NCBI GenBank assembly: GCA_943367505.1
Contig: CALRJJ020000001.1
Location: forward strand, 1-40,009
Origin: Flavobacterium psychrophilum
Lineage (GTDB): Bacteria > Cyanobacteriota > Vampirovibrionia > Obscuribacterales > Obscuribacteraceae
Length of the DNA: 40,009 bases
Direction: 5' to 3'
Below are positions 15,051-36,107 of the stretch, piece after piece. Numbering within the stretch: the stretch's first letter is position 1; each line of letters starts with the position of its first letter. A program made the position numbers and the translations under genes. Below the pieces are notes generated by a model. The model had not been told where the DNA came from. It saw nothing but the letters and a program-made list of their open reading frames with translations, and ran no database searches.

Positions 15051-15061
15051 GAAGGCGAAGT

Positions 15062-17899
15062 ATGAGCACGGCGACCGTCACACACACCGAGCATCAGCGT
15101 AAATATTTTGCGTCGCTTCTTAGCTTGCGAGGGAATGCGGAAGAAGAGATTTCGCAAACTTTGAAACGCGTGCGGGTTGATATGAACCCTCACCAGGTAG
15201 ATGCTGCTATTTTTGCCATCCAATCTCCGGTGTCATCTGGAGCGATTTTGGCGGATGAAGTTGGACTCGGGAAGACAATTGAAGCCAGTCTAGTGATGGC
15301 CCAAAAATGGGCCGAGAGAAAACGACGGATACTTTTGATTGTTCCAGCGTCACTTCGCAAACAATGGAGTCAAGAACTTTCAGAGAAATTTGGACTTCCC
15401 AGCATAATTATGGAAGCGAAAATATTCAATGCTGCGGTAAAAGCCAAACAGATAAACCCCTTTGAACAAGAAGGCTCAATCGTTATTTGCTCTTATCAAT
15501 TCGGAGCAGCCAAAGCAGACATGGTGGCACGAGTACCATGGGACCTGGTCGTTTTTGATGAAGCTCATAAACTGCGGAATGTCTACAAGAAGGACGGCTC
15601 GGCAATCGCAAAAAAATTGAAAGCTGCTACTGCTGCGCCTAAAAAGTTATTGCTTACTGCAACTCCACTCCAAAACACACTAATGGAGCTATTCGGTCTT
15701 GTTTCAGTTCTGGACGAACATTTTTTTGGAAGTGAATTAGCTTTCAAAACAGCTTACGTTTCTGGGCGAAGTGGCGTCAATTTGCCGATCTTAAAGCATC
15801 GTATGAAAGCAATCTGCCAGCGAACATTGAGGCAAGAAGCGCAAGAAGCAGGTCTGGTGAATTTCACAAGACGAAACCTTGTAACAGAAAATTTCTCTCC
15901 ATCTGATGAAGAGCAGCAGCTTTACGAGAAAGTATCTGCATATTTACAGCGTCCGGAAATTAAGGCGATGAAGCCAAACGGGCGCCATCTAGTGACCTTG
16001 GCTGTTAGAAAAATTTTGGCGTCTTCTTCGTTTGCGATAGCTGATACGCTCAAGAAAATGATGGACCGCCTTAAAACGAAGCACGCTGTCAATCTGGCAG
16101 CATTGAACGATCTCGAAGATCTGGACGAAACAGCTGAAGAACTTGAAATTGATGTCGATGACGAAGCTGATGCCCAGGAAGTAGAGGCTCTGGGAAGTGA
16201 GATCGAAGAACTTAGAGGCATGCAAGAACTGGCTTTAGGCATTAGAGAAAATGCTAAAGGAGAATGCCTTGTAAATGCTTTGGGTAAATACCTCGATAGC
16301 ATTGAAGAAAAAGGTGGTCAGCGCAAAGCTGTTGTCTTCACTGAATCCGTCCGTACGCAAACGTATCTCAAAACCTTGCTAAGCGCCAATGGTTATGATG
16401 GCAAAATAGTCGTTATGAATGGCTCCAATAGTGATCCTTCAAGTCAAGAAATATATAGACAGTGGTTAGCGAAGCACAAAGGAACGGATGCCATTTCCGG
16501 TTCTAAAAGTGCTGATATGAAGGCAGCTATTGTTGATAAGTTCAAAAATGATGCAGTCGTTCTTGTATGCACAGAATCAGGCGCAGAGGGTATAAACCTT
16601 CAGTTTTGCTCACTCTTGGTTAACTACGACCTACCGTGGAACCCACAAAGAGTAGAACAGCGTATCGGCCGTTGCCATAGATATGGGCAAAAGCTTGATG
16701 TTGCAATTCTAAATTTCATAAATCTTGGGAATAGAGCTGAACAGCGCGTCTTTCAACTCTTGAATCAAAAATTTCAGCTCTTCGATGGTGTGTTTGGTTG
16801 CAGCGATCAAGTTTTGAGTGCCATTGAATCTGGTGTCGACATCGAGCAAAAAATATTGGCTGTCATTCAAAAATGTCGATTTCCTCATGAGATAGATGCT
16901 GAGTTTGACAAGTTGCAGCAGGAATTAAAAGAAAAAATTGAGCAGCGAGATGAGGAAGCTCGTCTAGCTCTTCTCCAGACTATGGACGAAAGTGTTGTAG
17001 ACAGACTTAAGCTGCGTAAAGAGCGCATTGAAGACCGTCTGGGCAAATATGATCGCTATCTTCTTCTCCTCACCAAGTCAGAACTACCAGAAGCGCGTTT
17101 TGTAAATCCCAAGCGTTTTGAATACGATGGACAGACCTACAGCTTGGAATGGCCAGCGGCGGATGATAATGGTTGGCATTTTTACAGAATAGCTGAAGGC
17201 ACATTAGCTGCTAATCTAGTAGAAAAAGCAAAATCCAGAGAAGTTCAATTAGCCACAATTACCTTCGATTACAATGCTTACGAAGGTGGCGGTCAACTTA
17301 GCGATCTGCTACCGCTACGTGGCAATAGTGGCTATTTGACGGCAAACAAACTGACGATCACAAATGCAGTGTCAGTCAAGGAATATGTCATTTTAAGCGG
17401 GGTGACTGAGACCGGTGAAGTCTTGCATGAGGAACAACTCCACCATTTACTTTTAATTCCTGGGTCAGTTAAGAACAAGCTTCCTTCAAATCCACTGGCC
17501 TCGGTCTTAGCAAATATCTTAGACTCTCGGCAAAAAGAGCTTTATGTCAACGCAGAGGGCGAAAATTTAGAGTTTCTCAATGATGAAACAGAAAAGTTAG
17601 ATCGCTGGGAAGAAGAAAGTACAGCGGCTATTGATGTGGTTATCAAAGATCTGCGAAAACAAGCTAACGAGTGTGACAAACAGTCGCGGAATCCGGCGCT
17701 TACAATGAAAGAGAAACTAGCGCTTAAGAGGCAATCTAGCCATCACAAAGGCGAAGCGACTAAACAGAAAAAGAACTATTTTGAGCAGCAAGAGAAGATA
17801 GCAAGCGATCGGGTGGAAATACTTGATCGTCTTGAAAAACAATTACAGATAGAACAAGAAGTCGAGCCTATGTTCTCGATTCGGTGGGAATTGGTATGA
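15062..17899 (+). CDS. SNF2-family helicase/ATPase
   Basis: Helicase motifs LADEVGLGKTIEA, VVFDEAHKLRN, LLLTATPLQN, CTESGAEGINLQ and DLPWNPQRVEQRIGRCHRYGQ. The ATG at 15062 is preferred over the GTG at 15017. Confidence 0.9.
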   Translation: MSTATVTHTEHQRKYFASLLSLRGNAEEEISQTLKRVRVDMNPHQVDAAIFAIQSPVSSGAILADEVGLGKTIEASLVMAQKWAERKRRILLIVPASLRKQWSQELSEKFGLPSIIMEAKIFNAAVKAKQINPFEQEGSIVICSYQFGAAKADMVARVPWDLVVFDEAHKLRNVYKKDGSAIAKKLKAATAAPKKLLLTATPLQNTLMELFGLVSVLDEHFFGSELAFKTAYVSGRSGVNLPILKHRMKAICQRTLRQEAQEAGLVNFTRRNLVTENFSPSDEEQQLYEKVSAYLQRPEIKAMKPNGRHLVTLAVRKILASSSFAIADTLKKMMDRLKTKHAVNLAALNDLEDLDETAEELEIDVDDEADAQEVEALGSEIEELRGMQELALGIRENAKGECLVNALGKYLDSIEEKGGQRKAVVFTESVRTQTYLKTLLSANGYDGKIVVMNGSNSDPSSQEIYRQWLAKHKGTDAISGSKSADMKAAIVDKFKNDAVVLVCTESGAEGINLQFCSLLVNYDLPWNPQRVEQRIGRCHRYGQKLDVAILNFINLGNRAEQRVFQLLNQKFQLFDGVFGCSDQVLSAIESGVDIEQKILAVIQKCRFPHEIDAEFDKLQQELKEKIEQRDEEARLALLQTMDESVVDRLKLRKERIEDRLGKYDRYLLLLTKSELPEARFVNPKRFEYDGQTYSLEWPAADDNGWHFYRIAEGTLAANLVEKAKSREVQLATITFDYNAYEGGGQLSDLLPLRGNSGYLTANKLTITNAVSVKEYVILSGVTETGEVLHEEQLHHLLLIPGSVKNKLPSNPLASVLANILDSRQKELYVNAEGENLEFLNDETEKLDRWEEESTAAIDVVIKDLRKQANECDKQSRNPALTMKEKLALKRQSSHHKGEATKQKKNYFEQQEKIASDRVEILDRLEKQLQIEQEVEPMFSIRWELV

Positions 17900-17912
17900 G
17901 GTTGGCTGGGAT

Positions 17913-19562
17913 ATGAGCAGAAAACAAAAACTTCAACTTGACTGGATTAAAAAAGAAATTCGCCCTTTATTAGAGCCACGCATACTAGTGGAAGAATGTG
18001 AGAAAAGCTATCACCTAGACCATCGAATTACCGACAGTGACCTGTTTGATAACAAATTGATTTTCGGTGATAACCTATTAGCGCTCAAGGCTCTCGAACA
18101 AGAATTTAGTGGCAAAGTAAAGTGTGTATTTATAGATCCTCCGTATAACACGGGGAGTGCATTTGCTCAATATGATGACGGAGTAGAACATTCAGTTTGG
18201 TTATCTTTGATGAGAGATAGACTCGAACTTTTACATCGCTTACTCTCTGATGCAGGCTCACTCTGGATCACTATTGATGACAATGAGTGCCACTATTTGA
18301 AGGTGTTATGCGACGAGATTTTCGGTCGCAGCAATTTTATTTCGTCGTTTGCGTGGGAGAAAGATCAAGCTCGTCACAATGATGCGCTTATCTCTAGTGC
18401 GCACGATCATATACTGCTATACGCTAAAAATGCGGGGATATGGAGAGGAATTCGCAATCTACAGCCTCGTGAATCAGAGGGAAATAAGAGATATAAAAAT
18501 CCGGATAAAGATCCGCGTGGACCATGGCTCCAAGGAGCATGTAGCACTGCCAAAAGCGGTAGTGAAAAGAATAGATTTCCTGTAAAACTTCCTTCTGGTC
18601 GTGAAACGAAACCACCAGCCGGAAATTATTGGCGTTTTTCAGAAGCTACTCTTCAAACTGCCATTCTCGAAAATCGTGTCTACTATGGTAAAGATGGTGA
18701 CAGGTTGCCAATTATCAAAAGCTACTTGAATGAAGTTCAGGATGGCTTTGTACCAAAAACTTGGTGGCCAGCAGAAGAGGTCGGCTCAAATCAATCAGCT
18801 CGTAGAGATCACCTGAGAAAATTACTACCTGATGTTGAACCATTTGCAACTCCTAAACCAGAACAACTTATTGCCCGTATATTGCAGATATCCACTAACG
18901 CTGGAGATTTGGTTTTAGATTCTTTTGCAGGCTCTGGAACAACGGGTGCTGTGGCGCACAAAATGGGCCGCCGTTGGATTATGGTTGAACTCGGCGAACA
19001 TTGTAATACTCATATTGTGCCGAGACTAAAAAAAGTTATTGATGCATCTGATCCTGGTGGAATCACGGAATCAGTGCAGTGGAAAGGTGGTGGAGGTTTT
19101 CGTTTTTACCATTTAGCGCCTTCATTATTAGAGAAGGATTCCCTTGGGAATTGGGTTATTTGCCCTGAGTACAATGCTGCGATGCTTGCTGAAGCAGTGT
19201 GTAAGCACATGGGGTTTGTTTATGCCCCAAGCGACAGCCATTATTTCATTCACGGTTACTCAACTGAAACTGATTTTATATACACCACTACTGCTAGTTT
19301 GAGCCACGACCAATTAAAAACCTTAAGTGAGGACGTTGGAGAACATCGAACGCTGCTCATTTGCTGCAAAGCTTTTAGAGCCCAAGTAGATGCATTTCCC
19401 AATCTTTCTGTAGTGAAAATTCCAAAAGTTATTTTGAACAGGTGTGAATGGGACCGCGATGATTACAGCTTGAATGTAGCTAACGTACAGGCAGAACCAG
19501 TGCCCAAGCCTATAATTACGGCGGGGCAGCTCTCTCTCCTTGGAGAGTTGGTAAGCAAATGA
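17913..19562 (+). CDS. mod: type III restriction-modification methyltransferase (beta-class N6A/N4C)
   Basis: VFIDPPYNTGS (motif IV) precedes DSFAGSGTTGAVA (motif I), which is beta-class order. The start is 13 nt after the SNF2 stop. Confidence 0.9.
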   Translation: MSRKQKLQLDWIKKEIRPLLEPRILVEECEKSYHLDHRITDSDLFDNKLIFGDNLLALKALEQEFSGKVKCVFIDPPYNTGSAFAQYDDGVEHSVWLSLMRDRLELLHRLLSDAGSLWITIDDNECHYLKVLCDEIFGRSNFISSFAWEKDQARHNDALISSAHDHILLYAKNAGIWRGIRNLQPRESEGNKRYKNPDKDPRGPWLQGACSTAKSGSEKNRFPVKLPSGRETKPPAGNYWRFSEATLQTAILENRVYYGKDGDRLPIIKSYLNEVQDGFVPKTWWPAEEVGSNQSARRDHLRKLLPDVEPFATPKPEQLIARILQISTNAGDLVLDSFAGSGTTGAVAHKMGRRWIMVELGEHCNTHIVPRLKKVIDASDPGGITESVQWKGGGGFRFYHLAPSLLEKDSLGNWVICPEYNAAMLAEAVCKHMGFVYAPSDSHYFIHGYSTETDFIYTTTASLSHDQLKTLSEDVGEHRTLLICCKAFRAQVDAFPNLSVVKIPKVILNRCEWDRDDYSLNVANVQAEPVPKPIITAGQLSLLGELVSK

Positions 19563-22288
19563 CTAATAAACTCGTTAACGACATCAGTGCTCGTTTGAGT
19601 TTACGCACTCCACAGCATGATTGTCTTTCAATTTTATCAAAAATTGAAAGCTTGTTTGGCAGTGAAAACAAACTTGATGTCCAAGATGCTTTGGCATCGT
19701 TAGCTAAAGCATACCCGACAGTAACAGACTTTGAACGCGAATTCCCCTCGGTATGTTTTTCCTTGGCGACAGGAGTAGGTAAAACGCGCTTGATGGGCGC
19801 TTTTATCTCCTATTTATATCTTGTAGGAAGGAGCAAACATTTCTTTGTTTTAGCTCCCAATTTAACCATCTACAATAAATTGATCAACGATTTTGCTCCA
19901 GAAAACCCAAAGTATGTTTTTCGCGGAGTGGCTCAGTTCGCGAACAATCCACCTTTGATTGTCACTGGAGATAATTATGACCAGGGGCAAGGCGTCCGGT
20001 TTGATTACGCCACCGCCAAATCTGCAAATACGGCCAGAGCTTATGATTCGGGCGAGACTATTTTTATACAACGCCGTCTGTTTGAGACCGATGAAACCGT
20101 CATCATCAATATTTTCAACGTCTCCAAAATAGATGCTAAAGCTCGTAAAGGCAGTGCTCCGCGAATAAAACAGCTGCAAGAGTACATAGGCGAGAGCTAT
20201 TTTGAATATTTAGCTGGTTTACCAGATTTGGTGCTGTTGATGGATGAGGCTCATCGATACAGAGCGAAAGCGGGTGCTGATGCCATTAACGAATTGAAAC
20301 CAATTTTAGGACTTGAACTTACAGCTACTCCCAAAACAACCGGTCAAAATTCTCAACCTTTCAAAAATGTTGTTTATAGCTATCCATTGGGGGCAGCAAT
20401 GCAGGATGGTTTTGTTAAAGAACCTGCTGTTGCAACACGAAAAGATTTTCGCCCAGAAGATTATTCAAATGAAGCACTCGAACAGATCAAATTAGAAGAT
20501 GGTATTCACCACCATGAACATGTAAAAGTTGAATTGGAAGTTTATTCTCTCCAGCAAGGTAAAGCACTAATTCATCCATTCATGCTCGTTGTTGCTCAAG
20601 ACACCACTCACGCAAGTCAACTGCGTCAACTTATAGAATCTGACAGCTTTTTTGAAGGTCGATACAAGGACCGTGTTATTGAAGTCCATTCTAATCAAAC
20701 TGGTCAAGAATCGGATGAAGCTACACAACGTCTGCTTTCTGTTGAAAATGACACACAAACGGAGATTGTGATACATGTCAACAAACTAAAGGAAGGCTGG
20801 GACGTCACAAATTTGTACACGATTGTGCCGTTACGAGCATCAGCATCTGAAATATTAACGGAACAGACTATTGGTCGTGGACTACGTCTCCCGTATGGGC
20901 AACGAACTGGGGTAGAAGCTATTGATCGACTGACCATTGTTGCTCACGATAAATTTCAAGCAATTCTTGATGCCGCGAGTAATCCAGATTCAATAATACG
21001 AAAAACTGTGATCATTGGAGATGGCTGCGATGTTCCACTAGAAAAAACCAAAGCTCTTGTTGTTCCATCAATGATTGAGAGTACATTGGCGCAAGCGGCG
21101 GAAAATTCAGATAGCTATCAGCTAGACACTCAAACGAAACGGGATGTAGCGAACGTAGTCTTAGATGTGGTGAAGCAATTTGAGAGATTGGAAAGCTCAC
21201 AAAGACTGCAAGAACCAGAAATTAAAAGACAGATCGAGGCCAAGGTTAGAGAAATTTGGAATCCTGGTCAACTGACAATCGATGGAGTGATTGAAGAATT
21301 AGATATCGCCGCGATTGTTGATGTAGTAACAAAGACAGTTGCAGAATTGACTATAGATGTTCCGAAAATATCAGTAATTGCTACCAGCGAAGTGACATTT
21401 GGGTTTAAAAATTTTGATTTATCTAATTTGAGCACAATTAGATACCAGCCTGTAAGTCAGGATATTCTCATTCAAGAGCTGCGTACAAACGATCGATCGT
21501 TTTTGCTATCTAACAATAGCTTTGTCAAAGAAAATAAACTCGAAGATTACATCGTCAAAATGCTAATTGATCGCGATGAGATTGACTATGATGAACACTC
21601 AGAACTTTTGTACAAGCTTGCCTCTCAGGTAGTGACTCACTTACGAACATATCTCAAATCAGACATGGATGTTGAAAATGTTTTGTTGTATCACCAGTTA
21701 GCGATTTCAAATTTTATTGCTGCTCAGATGATGGAGAATAGCTGGGTCACACCAACTGGTCATGAAGTTAGGATCAGCAAAGGTTTTACTATCTTAAAGC
21801 CAAACAATTACAACATCTATTCCAATGAAAAAGCTCGAGACTTTCGAATAGCGTTAACTGATAAAAGTGGCATCAAAAGGATGATTTTCACAGGTTTTGA
21901 ACGTTGTTGCTATCCAATACAAAAGTTTGATTCTGACTCAGAAAGAAGATTCGCAACCCTGCTTGAAGATGATCCTACTGTTATACGCTGGATGAAACCA
22001 GCAATCGGACATTTTCAAATTGAGTGGAAGAATGGCGTTCCTTATCAGCCCGATTTTGTTGTGGAAACAATATCAGAAAAGTTAATTTGCGAACCAAAAG
22101 CGGCAGCAGAAGTAAATAGTGATGAAGTTCAACTTAAAGCTAAAGCAGCCATTAAATGGTGTGAGCATGCTACGGAGCATGCGCGCAAATTTGGTGGCAA
22201 ACCTTGGTCTTATCTTTTGATTCCGCATACAGACATTTTGGCCAACCGTACGTTGGATGGCCTAAAAGCTGGTTTTCTAGCCATTTAA
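19559..22288 (+). CDS. res: type III restriction enzyme Res subunit (helicase plus C-terminal PD-(D/E)xK)
   Basis: LATGVGKTRLM and LLMDEAHRY are helicase motifs. C-terminal YQPDFVVET...LICEPK is nuclease-like. ATGA overlap with mod. Confidence 0.85.
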   Translation: MTNKLVNDISARLSLRTPQHDCLSILSKIESLFGSENKLDVQDALASLAKAYPTVTDFEREFPSVCFSLATGVGKTRLMGAFISYLYLVGRSKHFFVLAPNLTIYNKLINDFAPENPKYVFRGVAQFANNPPLIVTGDNYDQGQGVRFDYATAKSANTARAYDSGETIFIQRRLFETDETVIINIFNVSKIDAKARKGSAPRIKQLQEYIGESYFEYLAGLPDLVLLMDEAHRYRAKAGADAINELKPILGLELTATPKTTGQNSQPFKNVVYSYPLGAAMQDGFVKEPAVATRKDFRPEDYSNEALEQIKLEDGIHHHEHVKVELEVYSLQQGKALIHPFMLVVAQDTTHASQLRQLIESDSFFEGRYKDRVIEVHSNQTGQESDEATQRLLSVENDTQTEIVIHVNKLKEGWDVTNLYTIVPLRASASEILTEQTIGRGLRLPYGQRTGVEAIDRLTIVAHDKFQAILDAASNPDSIIRKTVIIGDGCDVPLEKTKALVVPSMIESTLAQAAENSDSYQLDTQTKRDVANVVLDVVKQFERLESSQRLQEPEIKRQIEAKVREIWNPGQLTIDGVIEELDIAAIVDVVTKTVAELTIDVPKISVIATSEVTFGFKNFDLSNLSTIRYQPVSQDILIQELRTNDRSFLLSNNSFVKENKLEDYIVKMLIDRDEIDYDEHSELLYKLASQVVTHLRTYLKSDMDVENVLLYHQLAISNFIAAQMMENSWVTPTGHEVRISKGFTILKPNNYNIYSNEKARDFRIALTDKSGIKRMIFTGFERCCYPIQKFDSDSERRFATLLEDDPTVIRWMKPAIGHFQIEWKNGVPYQPDFVVETISEKLICEPKAAAEVNSDEVQLKAKAAIKWCEHATEHARKFGGKPWSYLLIPHTDILANRTLDGLKAGFLAI

Positions 22289-22683
22289 TGCTTACATTTC
22301 TTTTGAATCATTTTCCAATCAGCTTCTGATATTTTGGCTATACCGTTACGAAAATAGACTGCCCAGAATGCCAAATTGGTGACGAAACTTAGGTCCTCCA
22401 TTATTGTTTTGATATCAAATTCTTTTTGGAGTGAAGTAGCTTCGAATGAAAATCGGTCGGGATAATTGCCTTTTTTAAGAAAAACATCTTGGTCATCAAC
22501 GTAGTAGTCACTGGTGCTCTCGCCTATAGCAATGATTTTCCAATCTCCTTTTCCAGCACAGCAGGCAATTTTGTCGCCCTGCATCACACTGGAAATGAGA
22601 TTTTTGCGTCCTAAACCAAAAACTTTTTGCTTTATACAATGTTCCATGTCGAGGCGCGGCAGGCAAATAATCCAGTAATTCAT
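22285..22683 (-). CDS. small PUA-like (EVE/ASCH-type) domain protein (tentative)
   Basis: 132 aa. MNYWIICLP...KVFGLGRKN...MQGDKIACCAGKGDWKIIAIGE resembles the EVE/PUA beta-barrel pattern. Its stop overlaps the res stop (convergent). Confidence 0.5.
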   Translation of the reverse strand: MNYWIICLPRLDMEHCIKQKVFGLGRKNLISSVMQGDKIACCAGKGDWKIIAIGESTSDYYVDDQDVFLKKGNYPDRFSFEATSLQKEFDIKTIMEDLSFVTNLAFWAVYFRNGIAKISEADWKMIQKKCKH

Positions 22684-25556: not shown

Positions 25557-26498
25557 TTAGTCTGGCATCAAAATTGGTTTGCGAAGTCTCTCGGGAATCA
25601 TCTCAATTTGCTTGGCGTAAGCAGCTAAATTTTCCAAAGTTATTTTGCCCTTTGGACAAACAAGAGAGCCGCTTTCCTCTTTCTCCAGCTCGGCAGTCCA
25701 CCCACCAACACCCCAAACGATTGACACAAGGTAAGTCCGTCCTCTTTCACCATCGGGACAACTGGCTGCCATAGAACCGACAATGTGGTCGCCTTCTTTT
25801 AAATTAAACGCAGGATCAAAAATGAATTGAGGACCGCCGCTGCTTTTGGCCCCAATCCAATCAAATGTTGTGACTTTAATTGGAAGTGGATTTATAGTGT
25901 GCGCACTCAAATTCCAGAGTGCAAATGCATACTTAATCTCACGAACAGCTTTGGTAGACGGATTGGAAATGAGTAAAGCTGGGCTTTCAGGATAGATTAG
26001 CCTCAGTGAAAAATCTGATTTGCTTTCCGCTTGTTGCGGCTTTATGAGAGCCGTTCCTTTTGTCCAGACATCGAAACAATTGTTCAAAACGCCGAAGAAT
26101 ATTCCAGCTATGGTGAATAGAGCAATCAATCCGACCAAGATTGGATTGTTTGCTGACCACTTTTTCCCGCGATCTAATAAAGTTTCTGAGCTGGGGCGTT
26201 TATATTTTCCCGCTTGCTTTGCAGTTAGAGCCGCCTCTCCAGATGATGTCACAGTTAAACGTCCGTTAGATTCGATTATCCAGCCCTGCTCTACAGCGAT
26301 TTTTTTGCCCAGATCATAGTTCAAGACGATGACTTTCTGAACACCAGTTGCCGTTGGAGAACAAACCCAGACGTCATTGTTAATATTGGGTTGTTCAGTA
26401 AAGGTTCGTTGACCAGATTGCATCACAGTTTGAATGATTGCAAATGCTGCGGTTTCTTCGACAGTTGGAACAAAAACCGCCTTCAAAATTTTCATCAA
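25557..26498 (-). CDS. single-pass membrane protein, last gene of the mob operon
   Basis: 313 aa with a central TM segment (NPILVGLIALFTIAGIFFGVL). 4-nt overlap with the upstream J-domain gene. Confidence 0.6.
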   Translation of the reverse strand: MMKILKAVFVPTVEETAAFAIIQTVMQSGQRTFTEQPNINNDVWVCSPTATGVQKVIVLNYDLGKKIAVEQGWIIESNGRLTVTSSGEAALTAKQAGKYKRPSSETLLDRGKKWSANNPILVGLIALFTIAGIFFGVLNNCFDVWTKGTALIKPQQAESKSDFSLRLIYPESPALLISNPSTKAVREIKYAFALWNLSAHTINPLPIKVTTFDWIGAKSSGGPQFIFDPAFNLKEGDHIVGSMAASCPDGERGRTYLVSIVWGVGGWTAELEKEESGSLVCPKGKITLENLAAYAKQIEMIPERLRKPILMPD

Positions 26499-27712
26499 TT
26501 ATTCTGCTCCGGAGCTTTAAACGGGTTGACTTGGTTTTGTCGTATAAGCGGTTGCTGCACTCCAAATCGAGATTTGCGCTCCGTGCGTAAACTGCTTGGT
26601 TGATAGCTAAATGGGGCTGTATCGAATGTGCGGGGAACTGGTGTAGTAGGGATCACAGGTGTAGGAGCTGGATTTCCAGTCAGCTCAGAAAGGCGTTGGT
26701 TGGCTGAATTCAGTTCATTTTGAGCTTGGAATAAATAGCCCTTCTGACTATTTTGAAAGTTCAGAGCGCTTTTTTTGTCAACACTACTTACGTTTGTATC
26801 GTCCAGCTGAGTATCAATCTTGGCGATTTCACCTGTGCAATGTCGAATGATATTTTCTTGCTTATCGATCTCCATCTTCGTGTTGTAGATGTCCTGCTGT
26901 TTTTGCTTTTCAGCCTCTGCATCGCGACGCTTTTGTTCAATATCTGTCTGCGTTTGGTAAGCTGCATCATTGCCACCAGGGTATTGGTTGTAAGATGGGA
27001 TGATGCGCCGTGTACTGCCTGTGGACGAATCTGACGGTGTTGTTGCAGCCGGTCGATGGTCTCGCTCCCATTTCCAAGAAAAGTCATGCCACCAGGCTTT
27101 TAGGCCTGTTCCTGCCCAGCCATAGAAACACAGCGCGACCCATATCGCGCCAAGACCAATCGCTATTTTCCAGCGCAGAGATTCGTCCTGCATTATTCTT
27201 CTGTGGCTTAGAGCGTCTTCTTCTGCCTTCTGTGTTTTTGCATATTTTTCAGAAAACGCTTTGGCCTGCGCATCTTGTTCGGCGGCTTCGGCCGCTGCTT
27301 TTTGTGCTCGTTCGCGACTTCTCTGTCTAGCTTCTTCTTCTTCAGTGTCACGTTCCTGAGTACTGCGACGCCTTCCTGGCCCAGGTCCAGGTCCTGGTCC
27401 TGGTTGTGATCTTTCCGCAGAGCTGCCGCTAGGGGGCGTTTGAGAGGTCTGAGAACTTCCGCCGGCAGATCTGCAGGAGCACTGAGGAGAATCAGAATGG
27501 CTGCGTTCAAAATGAGCCGACAATAAGTCTTTGGCGTTATTTATTTTCTTCAATTCGGCTTCGGCTTCGAGTTTTCCTTCAGCGTTTTGAAAGCGGTCTG
27601 GATGCCATACCAAGATCAGTCGCTTGTGGCGGCGTTTGATTACATCAAATGGTTCGCCGCCATCCATTCCGAGATCACGATAGGCTTTTTGCAATGTTTG
27701 ATGATCGCTCAT
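26495..27712 (-). CDS. membrane-anchored J-domain (DnaJ-like) co-chaperone
   Basis: J domain with an HPD motif (AYRDLGMD...RRHKRLILVWHPDRFQ...KKINNAKDLL). Also a (PG)5 linker, a TM segment (IAIGLGAIWVALCFYGWAG) and a coiled-coil C-terminus. Confidence 0.8.
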   Translation of the reverse strand: MSDHQTLQKAYRDLGMDGGEPFDVIKRRHKRLILVWHPDRFQNAEGKLEAEAELKKINNAKDLLSAHFERSHSDSPQCSCRSAGGSSQTSQTPPSGSSAERSQPGPGPGPGPGRRRSTQERDTEEEEARQRSRERAQKAAAEAAEQDAQAKAFSEKYAKTQKAEEDALSHRRIMQDESLRWKIAIGLGAIWVALCFYGWAGTGLKAWWHDFSWKWERDHRPAATTPSDSSTGSTRRIIPSYNQYPGGNDAAYQTQTDIEQKRRDAEAEKQKQQDIYNTKMEIDKQENIIRHCTGEIAKIDTQLDDTNVSSVDKKSALNFQNSQKGYLFQAQNELNSANQRLSELTGNPAPTPVIPTTPVPRTFDTAPFSYQPSSLRTERKSRFGVQQPLIRQNQVNPFKAPEQNN

Positions 27713-28389
27713 TGTCCAAACACCGCCTTATTGATGCTGGTCCATAGCGTCATGAGCATGAGTGCTGTCGTTCCCAATAGCCACCAGGGTGGCGCTGGCA
27801 ACTTGGTATCGGCAGGATCTGCTGCGTTCTCTCCCGGTCCCATGGCGCTATCAATCTCAATGGTAAGGTTATTGATTATTGCGTCGCAAGCGCCTATAGC
27901 TGGGCCTTCTACAGTTGGAACAAAATCTAGTTGAACGATTGTTGTGTCGTTAGGCCCTTCGCTGAACTGCACGTCAAGCTCTATCAATCTTTGTTTGCGT
28001 TCTTTTCTCACGTGTATGTTTGACAAAGACTGACCTTCGAGATGGCTTTCTTCGTCCATAAATTTGAGAGTGGCACTTATTCTTCGCTGAATAGTATCGG
28101 AAGTAGCGACATGCCATTTATCACCAAAGTTGTAGGTCTTGTCACTCAAAATTTGGCGAACTTTAGAGTAAACCTGCTTGAGAGGCAGGTTATAGCGCCT
28201 TGGTACGGGATGGAGAAAGTTGTATCTGTTAACGCGGTCGGTATGTAAAAACGGCCAGAGAACCCAGAGGCCTGCCACAAACCCGGGGAATAAGCCACCC
28301 TCCAATTTGCCACCGACAATGCCATATGTCGTGGCAGAACCAACAACACAAAATGCAAAAATTGCTAAAGCTATGCCTGCTCCGAGCAT
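27709..28389 (-). CDS. membrane protein (two N-terminal and one C-terminal TM segments)
   Basis: 226 aa. 4-nt overlap with the J-domain gene. The start lies 8 nt after the coupling-protein stop. Confidence 0.65.
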   Translation of the reverse strand: MLGAGIALAIFAFCVVGSATTYGIVGGKLEGGLFPGFVAGLWVLWPFLHTDRVNRYNFLHPVPRRYNLPLKQVYSKVRQILSDKTYNFGDKWHVATSDTIQRRISATLKFMDEESHLEGQSLSNIHVRKERKQRLIELDVQFSEGPNDTTIVQLDFVPTVEGPAIGACDAIINNLTIEIDSAMGPGENAADPADTKLPAPPWWLLGTTALMLMTLWTSINKAVFGQ

Positions 28390-28396
28390 TTAAACC

Positions 28397-30418
28397 TCAC
28401 ACATCCCAGTCGGGAGAATCTTGTCGGTTGGGAATTGGTCTGCGAATGTTTGAGTCATTCTCTTTTTCTGGCTCGACCGGCTTATCACGTTCAATTTTTT
28501 TGTTATCGTTTTCAATAACTTCTGGTGTTGAAATAGGTTCTGATGTTGTATCAGTTGCTTCAGATTCCTGATTTTCGACTTGCTCTGGCTTTGTTTCTGG
28601 CGGCCTTAGAGGCTCTGTGGTTTTGTCTGGAATCGGTGCAGGCTTTTCCTTTGCGACTCTGCCACGCTTGCGAATAAATTCAGACACCTTGTGCTCAGCT
28701 CTAACTGGCGGGTCATACTCCATCGCCTGGTTGTATGCATCAGGGCTGATGAGCGGCATCTTCAACGGCCTTGTGTCGGCAGTAAAAATGATCACTTCCT
28801 TGTTCAAGCTAATTAGCTCATCTGGGGTTATCAAATGACGTCCCTGAATCGATTCCTGCACGCGCCCGCTATCGCTTACGGTAGCCTCATCTACGGTCAT
28901 GCGCCCAATCGCTTCGCTCAAATCCCGTGCTTCTTGGAAGGTCTTTTGTTTAAAGTGGACTTGCGTCGCTGGCATGTCCATAATTGTCTGAGCCTCTCTC
29001 TTGGTGTAGATTTGCTCCAGCTGTGAGTAGTTCTGAAAACCTAAGATCAGACCGATCTTATTTTTACGAATGAGCGACAGAGCGTTCTCTATGCCAGGTA
29101 TTTTTCCGAAGTTTGTAAACTCGTCGAGCAGCATGGTCATTGGATATTTCATATCTTTGCGAATATCCAAAATGTGATCGAGCAAGAAATTGAACATCAA
29201 TGAGCCAATAAGTTTGCTATCGGTAGACCGACTTGGAACAGCAATATAGAAAGTGAATAGCTGCTGTTTAAGCGCTTCTAGGTCAATATCGGTCTTTTCT
29301 GTCAAAGTGACAATCTGATCTGTCATCCAGGGGTTCATCTTCGAAATTAGGCCAGAAAATACGCCGTAAGCAAAGTTGGTTTTGCCTGCAAGCTGCATCC
29401 AGCCTTCAAATTCCATCTGCGCTATTTCAGAAGGGCTGTTGTACAAAATTTTCGCCAGCTTGTCTGGTCCTTCCAAAAGCATCCAACGTAGTGCGCCGAA
29501 ATGCCCTCGCTCTGGGTCTATGATCGCTGCATGAAGTATGAGAGACGTTAGCAAATGCTTCTCAGATCTGCTCCATGTCTTATCAACTTTGTTGTCGCCA
29601 CTCTCGCCGTTCATGATGACGAGGTCGGCTAGACTCTCAGCCATGCTCGATTTCTTCTCTTCCGGAGCATTTCTGACTCGATCAATTGGATTGATTCGCG
29701 TCGATGTCATGTCGGATGGATTGAAGCAATAAACCTGATGACCAGCCATCTTGCGCCAACCAGATGTGAGCTGATATAGCTCTCCAGCTTCATTGCCTGG
29801 CGTTGCTTCAGTCACGATCATGTTTGTCGCAACGCGCTCTACGAGCTGCGGAATAAAGAAACCGCGTGATTTACCAACGCCTGTTCTTCCGCAAACTAGT
29901 GCATGAGCATGGGTCAAACGCTCCGGCACCTGGATGTACTCATTCTTTGAAGACCTACCAATAATGAGCCTTTTGGGGTCGGCATTTTTTTGGAAGTAGT
30001 CCAGGGCGCGCAAGTCATCTTCTGACCCCCAGGTTGCAGCGCCATAAACGGTGTTCTTTTCTTTGTGCTCTTTTGCTTCTTCTGCTCTTACTGCGTCGTT
30101 TTGCAGTTCAAGCAAAATGCGATCACAGCGCTTTTGGCACTCGGCCTGACTGGCGCCGCCTTTGTTTTCCTCAATTTCAATATTGACGACAACACCGCTG
30201 GTTTTGGCGTTTCGCCATCTCACAATAACGCGATATTCGTGCCGCCACCAATCTTGCCCAATTTGCTCATCGAGTCTCTGAGTGGCCAGAATCTGGTCGA
30301 GCTGCTTACTTGCCCTGGTGACCTGGTAGCCGAGACGGTCTAGAACGTTGACGGCAAGGACCGGAAACTCCTTGGCAGAGGTTTCTACAAAGCCTTTATC
30401 CTCAACTCTCACTGGCAT
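28397..30418 (-). CDS. type IV coupling protein (VirD4/TraG/TraD family ATPase) lacking N-terminal TM segments
   Basis: Walker A LVCGRTGVGKSRG and Walker B MTMLLDEFTNFG. I saw no hydrophobic stretch in the first ~180 aa. The C-terminal tail is acidic and Pro-rich. Confidence 0.9.
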   Translation of the reverse strand: MPVRVEDKGFVETSAKEFPVLAVNVLDRLGYQVTRASKQLDQILATQRLDEQIGQDWWRHEYRVIVRWRNAKTSGVVVNIEIEENKGGASQAECQKRCDRILLELQNDAVRAEEAKEHKEKNTVYGAATWGSEDDLRALDYFQKNADPKRLIIGRSSKNEYIQVPERLTHAHALVCGRTGVGKSRGFFIPQLVERVATNMIVTEATPGNEAGELYQLTSGWRKMAGHQVYCFNPSDMTSTRINPIDRVRNAPEEKKSSMAESLADLVIMNGESGDNKVDKTWSRSEKHLLTSLILHAAIIDPERGHFGALRWMLLEGPDKLAKILYNSPSEIAQMEFEGWMQLAGKTNFAYGVFSGLISKMNPWMTDQIVTLTEKTDIDLEALKQQLFTFYIAVPSRSTDSKLIGSLMFNFLLDHILDIRKDMKYPMTMLLDEFTNFGKIPGIENALSLIRKNKIGLILGFQNYSQLEQIYTKREAQTIMDMPATQVHFKQKTFQEARDLSEAIGRMTVDEATVSDSGRVQESIQGRHLITPDELISLNKEVIIFTADTRPLKMPLISPDAYNQAMEYDPPVRAEHKVSEFIRKRGRVAKEKPAPIPDKTTEPLRPPETKPEQVENQESEATDTTSEPISTPEVIENDNKKIERDKPVEPEKENDSNIRRPIPNRQDSPDWDV

Positions 30419-31999
30419 CTAATACCGTCCCCATGGGTCATATTTGTCCCAGTCTTCTGTGTTATCGCGCTCCCACTTTTTGCGCTTTTTCTCGTCAGTC
30501 GCTTCGTTTCGTTTTGCCTGGTTCTCATCGATTTTCTGATCGAGCTTTTCTATTGTCTCGCGATCTTGGGCTTTCTGATCCTCTGGTCGTCCAGCCTGGT
30601 TATGCTCCTGAACTTTGTCCAGTTTCGCCGATTCGAGGTCATCCCTGCCTTCTTTCAGGCGGTCACGTTGATCAGTCAAAGGAATCCATTTGACCAACTC
30701 ATTAACTACTGCCGCCCCTTTCATGAAAAGACCCACAACCGGATTGCCCATAACTGCGTCTTGCATGGGAGTAGCAACCCTGAAGTTGTCCGGCATGCCT
30801 GACTGGGCTCGCTCTTTCCAGTGAGCTTCCTTGGCTTCGCCAATTTGACGCTCTAAAACACCAGACCATCGGGCGCGGTCGGCATTTTCCATCCATCCTC
30901 GCAGCGCCTGGTATTCGGCCACCGGCAAACGTTCGGCGTCTTTCTCCCTTAACTTGGCAGTCAGTTCGGACAGTTTTTCGTGCGGGGAATCTTTAGTGTA
31001 TTTTTGGCCCTTGTGCTGGATTGCAGTGACTTCTCTGTCTTCTTTTTCTTTGTCCGGCACCTGTTTATCAGGTTGCGATCGATCGCGTTCACCATTTCTC
31101 TCTTTGTCCTTAATCCAGCCAACGAGCTTCTTGTACTCGTCGACCGGTATGCGCTCGTCATAGTTATCCCAAAGATGCTCGTTCAATTTCTGCAATTCTT
31201 TGAGAGTGTTTTTCTTTGACCATTCTTCGCCAGCTGCGTGAATGGAGTCATTCAAAAATGGGACTTCGCGTTCCTGCGCAGAGGCTTCTTTGGCTTTTTC
31301 TTTTTTTGCGCGCTCCTGCTCGAGTTTTTTAGCCTTCCACTGGTCATAAGGCTCCAGTTGCTCCCGGATGATCTTTTTATGCATCCAGGGAAGCTCTAAA
31401 CCGTCTCTAACGCGTTCCTGCCGAGCAGTCTCTTTCTCTTTTTGGCGCTCGTCCCGTCGGCGCTTTATCTTTTCTTCCCGGTCGGTCCTGGCGTGATTCA
31501 GCTCAAGAGGGTGCACCCGCTCAAGATAGCGGTCGCCAAATTCTTTGATCTTGTCGTAGTCCCTTTTGTCCAAACGAACATCCCGACCGCTTTTGTCCTT
31601 GCCGAGAATGATCACATGGATATGGTGATGGTCAGTATTGCTGTGCGCCGTAGCCGCCCAGCGCAGGTCGAGCCCCTTGTCAGAACCGAGTTGCTTCATC
31701 ACTTCGCGGGTGAAGGCTTTCTTGTCTTCAGGGTTTATCTCTGGCGCCAGCGTGACCTTGTGGATGACGACATTGGCTTTGCCCATCTCCTTGATTGCTT
31801 TGCGCAATTCTTTTGAGTCCATGGCGTCTTCGGTTTCGTTGAACATCTCCCGACCGCCGTCGCCCCGGTCATCACCTGGGCGATGCTGGATATATTTGAC
31901 ATGCGCCATAGCCTTGCTGATGGCAACGACCTTTCCCGACCTGCCGCCGACAGCTCGCTGTTTTTTAGCTGAGATATAGCTGTGGCGAACGATCATCAT
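30419..31999 (-). CDS. relaxase (MOBP/VirD2-like nuclease domain) with a long charged C-terminal region
   Basis: MMIVRHSY...HVKYIQHR (Tyr candidates) and the histidine triad HSNTDHHHIHVII. ATGA overlap with the upstream RHH gene. Its stop abuts the coupling-protein start. Confidence 0.9.
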   Translation of the reverse strand: MMIVRHSYISAKKQRAVGGRSGKVVAISKAMAHVKYIQHRPGDDRGDGGREMFNETEDAMDSKELRKAIKEMGKANVVIHKVTLAPEINPEDKKAFTREVMKQLGSDKGLDLRWAATAHSNTDHHHIHVIILGKDKSGRDVRLDKRDYDKIKEFGDRYLERVHPLELNHARTDREEKIKRRRDERQKEKETARQERVRDGLELPWMHKKIIREQLEPYDQWKAKKLEQERAKKEKAKEASAQEREVPFLNDSIHAAGEEWSKKNTLKELQKLNEHLWDNYDERIPVDEYKKLVGWIKDKERNGERDRSQPDKQVPDKEKEDREVTAIQHKGQKYTKDSPHEKLSELTAKLREKDAERLPVAEYQALRGWMENADRARWSGVLERQIGEAKEAHWKERAQSGMPDNFRVATPMQDAVMGNPVVGLFMKGAAVVNELVKWIPLTDQRDRLKEGRDDLESAKLDKVQEHNQAGRPEDQKAQDRETIEKLDQKIDENQAKRNEATDEKKRKKWERDNTEDWDKYDPWGRY

Positions 32000-32451
32000 T
32001 GCCCGGTTACCACCTTGGCATTTCGGTCGGCAATTTCTGCCTCGTCGCGTTCAACGTGCCTGCGCATTTTTTGCTTGGCAGTATTTGACGCTGCTTCAAA
32101 TGCCTTCCTGGCATTTTCGTCGTCCGGCAAAGCCATCCAGGAAAGCTCAAAGAGCGTTCCAAGAGCGACCCCTTGCCGGGCAAGCATTTTACATATCCGG
32201 TCGACGCCGTTTTTGGTCGCTTTGATTTGCTGGTCGGTAGCGTAGCGAATTGCTTGGGCAACTTCGGCTTCACGGTCGTCCAAGGTGAGTTTCTCTTGAT
32301 TGTCCAAATACCAGAGCAAAGCTTGCCTGGCATATTCGGCTCGGGTCTGACCTGCCAGTTTGGCGTTGTCATCGAGTCGCTTCAGGTCTGCCTGGGCGAG
32401 TCGGGTTTCGACCCGGGGACTGTACTTGAGTGATGTTTTGGTTTCTTTCAT
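31996..32451 (-). CDS. relaxosome accessory protein (MobC-like RHH)
   Basis: SPRVETRLAQADLKRLDDNAKLAGQTRAEYARQALLWYL fits an RHH pattern. It is the first gene of the mob operon. Confidence 0.65.
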   Translation of the reverse strand: MKETKTSLKYSPRVETRLAQADLKRLDDNAKLAGQTRAEYARQALLWYLDNQEKLTLDDREAEVAQAIRYATDQQIKATKNGVDRICKMLARQGVALGTLFELSWMALPDDENARKAFEAASNTAKQKMRRHVERDEAEIADRNAKVVTGQ

Positions 32452-32541: not shown

Positions 32542-32593
32542 AAGCCCATACAATGGGCTTATTTTTATTAGCGCGGGTGCGCTTTATCTTGCC
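32542..32593 (+). other. candidate oriT (inverted repeats plus a nick-like core)
   Basis: Hairpin AAGCCCAT-ACA-ATGGGCTT at 32542-32560 and an AT-rich spacer. A second hairpin AGCGC-GGGT-GCGCT at 32570-32583 is followed by TTATCTTG/CC (32584-32593). This matches 8 of 9 positions of the RP4 / T-DNA border nick core TATCCTG/CC and sits 8 nt from the inverted repeat. Confidence 0.4.
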
Positions 32594-34197: not shown

Positions 34198-34458
34198 TTA
34201 CTTATCTTTCCACCTGGGAGGCGGTGAACCCGGGGGCTTGTGCTCCCGCGACTCCATGGACTTGGGCAGTTTAACCGATCCCGCACCAAGTTTGAAAACT
34301 GAACCCAGTACAGTAGTTACGATGCGTATGGACACTGTCAGTAGATTTTCTGCCATGCGAATCGCCGGTCGCACAATTGTCGAGTGGCGACCACCGGCCA
34401 TATAGTTCAAGGCAAGCAAAATGCCAACAAGTAAGCCGAGCGACAAAAGAATATCCAT
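34198..34458 (-). CDS. possible small membrane protein (86 aa)
   Basis: The ORF has two hydrophobic segments. The SD is weak. Confidence 0.35.
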   Translation of the reverse strand: MDILLSLGLLVGILLALNYMAGGRHSTIVRPAIRMAENLLTVSIRIVTTVLGSVFKLGAGSVKLPKSMESREHKPPGSPPPRWKDK

Positions 34459-34610
34459 GCAGATATCTTACTGCCAGTCAGCGAGAATCACGTCGACCAG
34501 GGCGACCAATCCCCAAAGCAGCGCCAATGCATGGTTTCGAGAGCCTCATTTTTAGTTACCGTCAAACTGACAAGAGGAGGGTATATAACTCAAGTTGCCC
34601 CGAGGTTGGC

Positions 34611-36107
34611 ATGCCCGAAGACGCAGAAAAGAACAGAGAAATCGTCAAACCTCTGGAGCAGCAAGCGCCGCCAGAAGCAGCTCAGCGCGGCGGTGTAATC
34701 GGGGGAAATGTCAATCAGGCTAGGTGGCGTCAAACCCAACAAGCTCACATTCTTGAGCAAGGTGAATCGGCTACCGATTTATTCTACGACCCAAATTTTA
34801 AACCGAAGGACAAAAGTGCGAAATTTGAACTGTTTGACGATTCGGCGCCCGCAGAGTCAGTCAAACAGGGCAAATTCATTGACTATGAACCGGCACAATT
34901 AGACAAAAAAACTTTTGCCTTGGGCATGGACCATGAAAATGACAATCGCTCAGGTGTGCAAAAGCTGGGCGATTTCATTGATGCTGTGGCACGTCGAGCT
35001 TCTAACCCGGAACAGCAAAAGCAATATATTCAGGACGAACTTGAAAAAATCGTTGGCATTGGACGCGGTTTGAACAATGCAAAAGAACACACAAAAGCAG
35101 CTGCTACAGCTGGTTGGACAGCATTGACAGATGGTACCGTTGCCTCCTTTCTTGCAAAACCGAACGCGATAAATGAGCCACTTTTCCACGCCGTCGGCAA
35201 TCTATTTGACCAAATGAGTAAGGACCCTCTTGCCACAAGCCAAGCAATGGAGCGCATCGGACAACTAGTAATTGCAAGCAGTGAAAACTATTCAAAACTT
35301 CCACCGGGCAAGCAAGGAGAAGTTTTAGGCGAGACTTTGTTTTATTCAATCAATCCAGAAGGCAGCACAGAAGCCGGTGAACTAGCTTTGAAAGTTGCCG
35401 ATCAGGTGGCCACAAAGGTAGATGCGGCAGTTATCGCCGGTATAGAAAAATCGGCGAAAGCGGCTCAAGAAATGGCTCTGGTAGCTCCTGAACTGGCCGA
35501 ACAATCAAGAGCGATGATTCTTGATTACGGACGCAGCCTTGGACTAACACCGCAAGAAATGGAAGTAGCCGGTGTGCCGCGCGGCTGGATGCAAGACCGT
35601 GTTCGCCTGGACGACAATATGTTCGCGATGAGCGATGGTAAGTCCGGTTTTCGCGGCGATCATGATTTTCATAACCCTATTAACGAGCAGACTGGAAAAA
35701 AGAAAAGCTACATCAACGCTGATGGAGATTTGACCCCAGCCGACCCTGAGGGCTTGTTCAAAGAGAAACCGGTAGATATCGTTCATCACTTGTGTGGTGA
35801 TTTCTATAAATGGCATAAGCCTTTCAGCCCATACACCAGTTTGAGCGAGTTGGCCGAAATCTCGGTCAAGTACGGCAAGCAGTTTAAATTGACAGCTGAC
35901 TTGGAAAAACTCGAGTTGGCTATTCAGTCGGGTGAAGTATCGGGTGTTCAGCTTATCAAGCATGATGAAGTACTGGAGATGATCCGCAATTCGCCCTGCC
36001 ATGAGTATTCACGCAAAAACGCTATGAAATATGCGATAAAAGACAAGGAAATTTTGATTCGTGGAGTCTTGCCCAAACGCTTCTTCAAAGTGGAGTTGGC
36101 TGAATGA
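34611..36107 (+). CDS. polymorphic-toxin-like protein (helical N-terminal region, unassigned C-terminal toxin domain)
   Basis: ATG at 34611 with a GAGG SD. The call rests on context: an ATGA-coupled small gene and then a SUKH/SMI1-KNR4 immunity-type gene follow. Confidence 0.55.
   Translation: MPEDAEKNREIVKPLEQQAPPEAAQRGGVIGGNVNQARWRQTQQAHILEQGESATDLFYDPNFKPKDKSAKFELFDDSAPAESVKQGKFIDYEPAQLDKKTFALGMDHENDNRSGVQKLGDFIDAVARRASNPEQQKQYIQDELEKIVGIGRGLNNAKEHTKAAATAGWTALTDGTVASFLAKPNAINEPLFHAVGNLFDQMSKDPLATSQAMERIGQLVIASSENYSKLPPGKQGEVLGETLFYSINPEGSTEAGELALKVADQVATKVDAAVIAGIEKSAKAAQEMALVAPELAEQSRAMILDYGRSLGLTPQEMEVAGVPRGWMQDRVRLDDNMFAMSDGKSGFRGDHDFHNPINEQTGKKKSYINADGDLTPADPEGLFKEKPVDIVHHLCGDFYKWHKPFSPYTSLSELAEISVKYGKQFKLTADLEKLELAIQSGEVSGVQLIKHDEVLEMIRNSPCHEYSRKNAMKYAIKDKEILIRGVLPKRFFKVELAE

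Follow-up and report, generated by a model that had tools for sequence, protein, structure and literature searches.

We have analysed a 40,009-nt stretch of DNA from CALRJJ020000001.1 (the window), studying six open reading frames (ORFs) that run head to tail on the minus strand from 32451 to 25557. Judged by sequence comparison, the first five are a conserved core encoding a relaxosome accessory protein, a relaxase, a type IV coupling protein (T4CP) and two membrane proteins, here called A and J, and the latter two are a conserved pair within it. The T4CP has no membrane anchor, A has three transmembrane (TM) helices and J is a membrane-tethered J-domain protein. We think there is an even chance that A is the receptor of the anchorless T4CP and that J, located beside A, recruits the host DnaK to the complex. 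A first-pass annotation of the window had placed all six ORFs at these positions, and had regarded A, J and the product of the sixth ORF as a trio. It overlooked the absence of an anchor from the T4CP; once this is recognised A becomes the likely receptor and the module acquires a concrete rationale.

The coupling protein lacks a membrane anchor

The T4CP is a VirD4-type protein of 673 aa (28397..30418, minus strand, as for every gene of the operon). It matches the Pfam families PF02534 (T4SS-DNA_transf, where T4SS is type IV secretion system; E = 1.6e-52), PF12696 (TraG-D_C; E = 7e-24) and PF10412 (TrwB_AAD_bind; E = 1e-17). The sequences GRTGVGKS and MLLDEF are visible in its translation, and it has the nucleotide-binding domain and the all-alpha domain of the VirD4/TraG family. 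The N-terminal TM domain of that family is absent. No TM helix could be detected, the maximum Kyte-Doolittle hydropathy over 19 residues being 1.07, with a range of 1.01-1.15 over the seven family members compared. Residues 1-115 (nt 30074-30418) are instead a soluble N-terminal domain that is strongly conserved in alignment, with a mean column identity of 72% and 43 invariant columns; a profile of this domain found nothing meaningful among PDB sequences. None of the plasmid T4CPs in PLSDB exceeds 26% identity to that of the window.

Canonical VirD4/TrwB coupling proteins depend on their N-terminal TM domain, but two classes of exception are recognised, i.e. T4CPs lacking the TM domain that are associated with small membrane proteins (TraJ of pIP501 with TraI), and TraG-TraJ pairs (R27); the manner in which anchorless coupling proteins are assembled at the membrane is unresolved (PMC7434980). 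The window operon resembles the first class, having a VirD4-family ATPase without a TM helix and the gene for a small membrane protein adjacent to it in the operon. The proposed logic is also the same, with the partner supplying the anchor, and the likeness is one of layout. pIP501 is Gram-positive and self-transmissible with a full T4SS, whereas the lineage of the window host is diderm and no T4SS genes lie nearby. Moreover the window T4CP has its conserved soluble N-terminal domain, A has a helix-grip-like domain, and there is a second partner that carries a J domain. In R27 (IncH) the T4CP likewise needs an adjacently-encoded membrane protein, of ~200 aa (PMC7434980). However, TraG of R27 has a TM domain of its own, which the window T4CP lacks, and R27 TraJ, with its up to five TM helices, lacks a J domain.

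Protein A has three transmembrane helices and a soluble domain

Protein A (226 aa; 27709..28389) is proposed to be the membrane receptor of the T4CP. It had been described as a 3-TM protein, and here hydropathy and the model concur. Hydropathy peaks lie at residues 1-17, 32-48 and 203-219, and in the model (mean pLDDT, i.e. predicted local distance difference test, 80) helices of residues 2-23 (TM1), ~29-59 (TM2) and 202-224 (TM3; nt 27718-27786) are arranged around an alpha/beta domain of residues 64-183 (nt 27841-28200). The count of lysine and arginine residues is 4.2 following TM2 compared with 0.8 in the TM1-TM2 loop, so that by the positive-inside rule the soluble domain is placed in the cytoplasm. 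We describe its fold as helix-grip-like; Foldseek returned weak matches to START, SRPBCC, CoxG and BamC-N structures (E = 8e-5 to 1e-3), and the target-normalised TM-scores against 2d4r, 8uds (CoxG) and 2yh6 (BamC-N) are just 0.3-0.5. No match to A was found in Pfam, NCBIfam, PADLOC or PLSDB, and a profile of A compared with PDB sequences gave nothing meaningful.

The 146 homologues of A are almost constant in length, and with a mean column identity of 53% A is the best-conserved protein of the module. A is suited to the role of partner because it always adjoins the T4CP, is the best conserved, has a cytoplasmic domain and persists where J has been lost.

Six distant relatives of A (P0259, P0308, P0325, P0327, P0333 and P0337) have a Ser/Pro-rich and coiled-coil tail behind TM3, in which a recurrent E-x-W-x-x-F-K-like motif resembles the juxtamembrane region of J. 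A seventh sequence, P0347, has a fragment of the T4CP fused to A. We rejected this as evidence of interaction, as the C-terminal half of the T4CP is absent and the fusion is probably the product of a deletion.

Protein J carries a genuine J domain

Protein J (405 aa; 26495..27712) had been annotated as having a J domain (WHPDR), a (PG)5 stretch, one TM segment and a coiled coil, and analysis using Pfam, AlphaFold2 and Foldseek bears out the whole description, the last element being a helical hairpin. Residues 1-80 (nt 27473-27712) adopt the helical J fold, and HPD, within WHPDR, is in the loop that joins helices II and III. The match to Pfam DnaJ (PF00226) scores 31.5 bits, above the curated cut-off of 27.8, and the profile of the J family matches solved J domains with E = 1e-10. 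In the AlphaFold2 model pLDDT exceeds 90 over residues 1-80, and Foldseek superposes the modelled domain on 6rzy and 5nro_B with TM-scores of 0.73-0.74 and root-mean-square deviations of 1.6-2.1 Å; 5nro_B is E. coli DnaJ bound to DnaK. The domain is followed by a disordered linker containing the (PG)5 stretch (residues 104-113; nt 27374-27403), a single uninterrupted helix of residues 118-218 that includes the TM segment (residues 183-201; nt 27110-27166), a helical hairpin of residues 249-345 (nt 26678-26968; pLDDT 95) and a disordered Pro-rich tail. Hydropathy and AlphaFold2 agree on this layout. J has no signal peptide, and its J domain is N-terminal to the sole TM segment.

There are 176 detectable homologues of J. 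The conserved parts are the J domain, the sequence H67-x4-H72-x5-C78-x-C80 directly behind it, the GPGPG stretch, the TM segment and a tryptophan-rich juxtamembrane stretch, while the cytoplasmic helix has one conserved face (E125, A128, R131 and R135). H67, H72, C78 and C80 (nt 27473-27514) are invariant in all 99 aligned homologues, and may form a small metal-binding or redox site that is unlike the zinc-finger repeats of DnaJ. The periplasmic coiled-coil region varies in both length and sequence, and is the least-conserved part of the protein; some members of the family, at only 275 aa, have little on the periplasmic side (L016). Of 120 homologues 113 keep HPD, and the remaining seven, which form one clade, have HSD in its place (P0016, P0018, P0021, P0025, P0026, P0030 and P0100; loci L004/L005). 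The HSD-type J sits in an intact relaxase-T4CP-A-J operon, and is a natural test case for the need for canonical stimulation of DnaK.

A and J recur together behind the coupling protein

We compared seven contexts (the window and six others), over which J is 36-100% identical. All have the order accessory-relaxase-T4CP-(TPR)-A-J on one strand, where TPR is a tetratricopeptide repeat-like gene (171-177 aa) found between T4CP and A in some of the contexts. The A and J genes overlap by 1-4 nt in the window and six related loci for which the gene calls were inspected.

The arrangement was then probed from both ends. A scan using A alone, with one genome per species, gave 67 loci. J lies directly after A in 65 of these, and a T4CP is encoded ahead of A everywhere except in L029 and L054, whose contigs start just before A, and in L047. 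The reverse probe used only the N-terminal domain of the T4CP against metagenome contigs; among the 47 loci with enough downstream sequence A is present in 47 and J in 38. When neighbouring ORFs were clustered over 9 kb on each side of 85 loci, the conserved neighbours were the accessory protein, relaxase, T4CP, A and J only, with the TPR gene in 20 loci and a tyrosine integrase in 21. Altogether the A-J arrangement recurs in ~100 distinct loci, so it is not due to chance. Co-occurrence of the supposed trio with relaxase and T4CP genes therefore holds strongly for J and the 3-TM protein, and fails for the third gene.

A few of the homologues of J and A are named, with the labels Obscuribacterales, Melainabacteria or 'Cyanobacteria bacterium REEB67', and the family is essentially confined to the Obscuribacterales, i.e. 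uncultured non-photosynthetic cyanobacteria. No homologue of A or J was found among the 72,556 plasmids of PLSDB, and a search there with the DNA of the operon was also empty. Several copies of the module are on megabase contigs, indicating integration, and others are on plasmid-like contigs of 20-50 kb.

Many metagenome-assembled genomes contain several copies of the module (on four contigs in palsa_1080, for example). Some copies are decayed: the T4CP and J are fragmented in L046, J or the T4CP is split in L073/L074, and only a remnant of the T4CP is left in L071. L047 has A and J without mobilisation (MOB) genes. All five of these loci are on chromosomal or large contigs.

J is lost together with the third transmembrane helix of A

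There is a sublineage from which J is missing, comprising eight distinct loci (L149, L150, L154, L157, L159, L160, L161 and L163; L154 and L157 are two copies on the same 56-kb contig). In these A stops right behind the soluble domain, at 186-192 aa, without TM3, and differing cargo genes follow immediately after the shortened A. The 3′ boundary of the module is thus within the 3′ end of the A gene. When 103 distinct A sequences are tallied, TM3 and J occur together in 93, TM3 without J in one, neither in nine and J without TM3 in none, which argues that J and TM3 of A may act together; it weighs against reading too much into these statistics that the co-loss amounts to approximately a single evolutionary event, i.e. 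one subclade plus one copy disrupted by an insertion sequence.

Organisation of the operon

The first gene encodes a ribbon-helix-helix, NikA-like relaxosome accessory protein (151 aa; 31996..32451), assigned from weak matches (NikA-like with E = 8e-4, below the cut-off, and RelB-like) and from its position; a gene for the accessory protein is retained at the first position of the operon in 63 of the 85 loci. The second encodes a MobA/VirD2-type relaxase (526 aa; 30419..31999) matching PF03432 with 30.2 bits against a cut-off of 24.6. Its translation contains the His-rich sequence HSNTDHHHIH, and so has the histidine triad of PF03432 relaxases. NCBIfam indicates that it is RlxS-like (E = 9e-14), yet with a score far below the cut-off of that model.

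The junctions are all tight. The accessory and relaxase genes share an ATGA overlap, the TAG of the relaxase is followed immediately by the ATG of the T4CP, and a 7-nt gap separates the T4CP from A, with a GAGG sequence that overlaps the T4CP stop codon. Overlaps of 4 nt had been reported on both sides of J. That between A and J is indeed ATGA at 27709-27712. The other, TTGA at 26495-26498, exists only if the third gene of the supposed trio starts at TTG; with the ATG 3 nt downstream the overlap is 1 nt (TGATG). The ATG at 26495 is the likelier start because the public gene call of the third protein is 312 aa (P0241), but the genes are coupled either way. The sequence of the junctions indicates that the whole operon is arranged for coupled translation. 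As had been reported, there is no Hsp70 gene nearby; none was found in a Pfam scan of non-overlapping ORFs of at least 100 aa over the 40-kb window.

Proposed mechanism and alternatives

We propose that A serves to hold the anchorless T4CP at the inner membrane. J would be made in step with A (i.e. stoichiometrically) through translational coupling, and would insert beside it, probably packing on TM3 of A, with its J domain and conserved charged helix directed toward the cytoplasm and its hairpin and Pro-rich tail toward the periplasm. The J domain would then recruit the host DnaK-ATP and trigger its ATPase at the T4CP-A complex, and DnaK would act on a local client, for which the relaxase, the relaxosome and oligomers of the T4CP are equally compatible candidates. 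A relaxase has to lose its fold to be exported, through an enzyme that is unknown (PMC5826034); this makes the relaxase attractive as the client, and the recruitment of DnaK to unfold it, as suggested in the first-pass annotation, is plausible.

A number of observations weigh against this interpretation. We infer the contacts between A and the T4CP and between A and J, together with the recruitment of DnaK and its client, and it is synteny and co-loss that point to the contacts. A direct comparison using hhalign of the N-terminal domain of the T4CP with the soluble domain of A gave a score of 21.7, exceeding all 150 column shuffles (mean 12.9, standard deviation 2.5), but the similarity is weak (hhalign probability 4%) and is a hint of homology to be taken as a lead only. 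The existence of the HSD clade questions a strict need for canonical stimulation of DnaK, and the periplasmic half of J is poorly conserved and its role unexplained. No transfer channel is encoded nearby, so that transfer itself is something that we infer. Finally the J-less subclade keeps the relaxase, T4CP and A intact, so J is an accessory that is not indispensable for persistence of the core.

That persistence of a J-less lineage would also be expected if A and J were an independent membrane module, acting in entry or surface exclusion, relief of envelope stress or maintenance of the element, with no part in the processing or export of DNA. We consider this unlikely. It would accommodate L047, where the 9 kb upstream of A and J is free of MOB genes, the location of the genes at an operon end that serves as a cargo slot, and the variation in length and sequence of the periplasmic part of J, as determinants of exclusion often vary in this way. 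On the other hand the near-obligate synteny disfavours such a module, which the first-pass annotation had offered as its alternative. A was present at all 47 loci that were found through the T4CP N-terminal domain alone, it is more conserved than the other proteins of the module, and it suits the vacancy that a T4CP without an anchor creates. For exclusion a cytoplasmic J domain is of no evident use, and none of A, J and the 313-aa protein matches a defence-system model in PADLOC.

The layout of J, with a cytoplasmic domain, a single TM segment, a confidently-modelled coiled-coil hairpin and a Pro-rich tail, might alternatively be that of a mainly structural adaptor spanning the envelope from T4CP-A to a helper T4SS or to the outer membrane. 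The J domain would then play a subordinate part, either helping only J itself to fold or insert or acting independently of DnaK. The HSD clade would be consistent with this, as would the distant members of the A family, whose polypeptide continues beyond TM3 into a coiled-coil tail and contains no J domain. In addition, with no mating-pair genes nearby, a helper system must be contacted somehow. However, conservation is concentrated in the J domain (with HPD in 113 of 120 homologues), in H67/H72/C78/C80 and in the juxtamembrane region, whereas the periplasmic region is the least conserved and is short in the 275-aa members. We regard the adaptor as distinctly improbable.

It is very unlikely that the J domain serves establishment or replication of the element, or manipulates the heat-shock response of the host, rather than acting in transfer. 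There are precedents for such roles. DnaK and DnaJ remodel plasmid initiators, and chaperone activation of Rep proteins is established. The phage RB43 protein Rki is reported to be a J protein of a mobile element working through DnaK (PMC3486835), and the window contains a primase-like candidate replicase at 11380-13179. Yet J is linked and translationally coupled to T4CP-A and to no replication gene, the T4CP-A-J arrangement is constant while replication and cargo genes vary among loci, and these roles require no anchoring in the membrane. Lastly, that the T4CP, A and J might be a self-sufficient Hsp70-assisted device for export of DNA and relaxase without a VirB-type channel, with the tethered J domain making DnaK the unfoldase or feeder of the relaxase where it enters the coupling ATPase, has very little probability, the missing channel genes being all that speaks for it, although if true it would be the bacterial equivalent of the translocon motors that Hsp70 drives in eukaryotes.

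The position behind J is a cargo slot

The sixth ORF (25557..26498) encodes a single-pass membrane protein of 313 aa (more likely 312, from the ATG at 26495). Its single-pass character was predicted correctly, with one strong TM segment at residues 115-143, but its membership of a trio is not sustained. It has no match in Pfam, NCBIfam or PADLOC, and its GC fraction of 0.437 is the lowest of the operon. We rejected the gene as a member of the module on the following grounds: the family has just seven members, elsewhere among the loci compared J is followed either by proteins with no relationship to one another (217, 243, 195 and 146/153 aa) or by none, and in the sister element L167 a DUF4379 gene lies between J and the 313-aa homologue. 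To judge from the variety of its occupants, the position behind J is a cargo slot. An unannotated 576-aa protein encoded elsewhere in the window (34377-36107, plus strand) has a 46%-identical relative directly behind J in L067 (8167-9966), which shows that cargo genes are shuffled into the slot.

In other loci the genes behind the module include nitric-oxide reductase (NorB) together with Rrf2, globin and hemerythrin genes (L004 and L009-L012), and an efflux operon of the resistance-nodulation-division/major facilitator superfamily (RND/MFS) types (L013-L015). The mobilisable elements thus move respiratory and detoxification cargo.

Mobilisation class and other features of the window

We rejected the possibility that the element is self-transmissible. 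Neither VirB4 nor other mating-pair genes were found among ORFs of at least 100 aa in the window, no mating-pair cluster recurs within 9 kb on either side of the 85 loci, and each of ten large Walker-A proteins encoded in the flanks proved on scanning to be a helicase, a defence-type ATPase or ParA. With no mating-pair genes nearby the elements look mobilisable, not self-transmissible.

A promoter and terminator scan with an inverted-repeat search gave just one candidate for a hairpin of the origin of transfer (oriT). This is the perfect 8-bp-stem hairpin AAGCCCATTGTATGGGCTT at 32542..32560, ~109 nt upstream of the accessory gene. It is identical at the same offset in L044 and near-identical in L006/L007, and in most other loci the search yielded no perfect hairpin of 7 bp or more. 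We tentatively suggest that it is the inverted repeat of oriT.

The remainder of the window contains a defence island at 14193-22683, with a helix-turn-helix (HTH) protein, a DrmD-like SNF2 helicase (PADLOC E = 6e-193), an N6/N4 DNA methylase, a type III restriction enzyme (E = 2e-279) and a convergent EVE-domain gene. A resolvase-EVE-ResIII-methylase backbone is also found behind the module in L167. At 7554-10697 there is a three-gene cassette that is shared with the REEB67 element (L001, 14771-17889) at 48-65% identity. It encodes proteins of 446 aa (weakly QueC-like), 396 aa (HTH plus M78 (ImmA/IrrE) peptidase) and 212 aa (DUF3368 in the relative), and looks like a regulatory or defence unit. 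A small ORF lies upstream of it in both elements, of 189 aa in the window and of 188 aa in L001. A 599-aa protein encoded at 11380-13179 (minus strand) matches archaeo-eukaryotic primase weakly (E = 2e-4) and is a candidate for a role in replication; the primase-like protein recurs ~8.9 kb upstream of A in five loci. The window ends without terminal overlap, and its circularity is unproven.

Relationship to known systems and significance

Membrane-anchored J proteins are found at translocons, where Sec63 acts with BiP and Pam18/Tim14 with mtHsp70, and the bacterial examples are DjlA, DjlB and DjlC. Like Sec63 and Pam18, J would place a TM-tethered J domain beside a translocation ATPase or channel, localising Hsp70 there, and like DjlB and DjlC it has an N-terminal J domain followed by a C-terminal TM segment. 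In the translocons, however, the J domain is trans and the substrate is drawn across by Hsp70, whereas that of the window would be cis, i.e. in the donor cytoplasm. Beyond the J domain none of these proteins has a sequence relationship to J, the J domain of Sec63 matching with E = 0.002. J is not a DjlA, scoring 12.5 bits (E = 0.08) with the DjlA model NF006948 against a cut-off of 162, and the order of domains in DjlA is reversed relative to J.

CloDF13 (MOBC1) also has a relaxase and T4CP without mating-pair genes, and is presumed to be transferred via a helper system (PMC7434980). Elements of that type differ from that of the window, where the T4CP is so distant from those in PLSDB and A and J have no homologue there. 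RB43 Rki is similar in that a mobile element encodes a J domain to exploit the host DnaK, but it is reported to be a soluble phage protein that stabilises sigma-32, neither bound to a membrane nor linked to genes of DNA transfer (PMC3486835).

The remark of the first-pass annotation that J-domain genes are not known as standard members of mobilisation operons agrees with our finding none in such an operon, either in the full-text literature searched or in PLSDB; the literature on Melainabacteria plasmids and on DjlA with T4SS was uninformative. The design of an anchorless T4CP with a membrane partner is already known, and what is new is the J-domain partner, the soluble N-terminal domain of the T4CP and the helix-grip-like receptor.

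By hard-wiring a membrane-tethered J domain beside a T4CP that lacks an anchor, this lineage of mobile elements provides a natural experiment on the unfolding of relaxases and on the assembly of coupling proteins at the membrane. The arrangement predicts a direct role of Hsp70 at the coupling step, and the T4CP, A and J are a compact system open to testing in a heterologous host. The analysis also defines a widespread mobilisation module of the Obscuribacterales, of which we found no description in the literature searched. Nitric-oxide reductase, efflux and restriction genes are among the cargo of its elements, and the module should be useful in annotating the genomes of the Obscuribacterales and in tracing the flow of genes among them.

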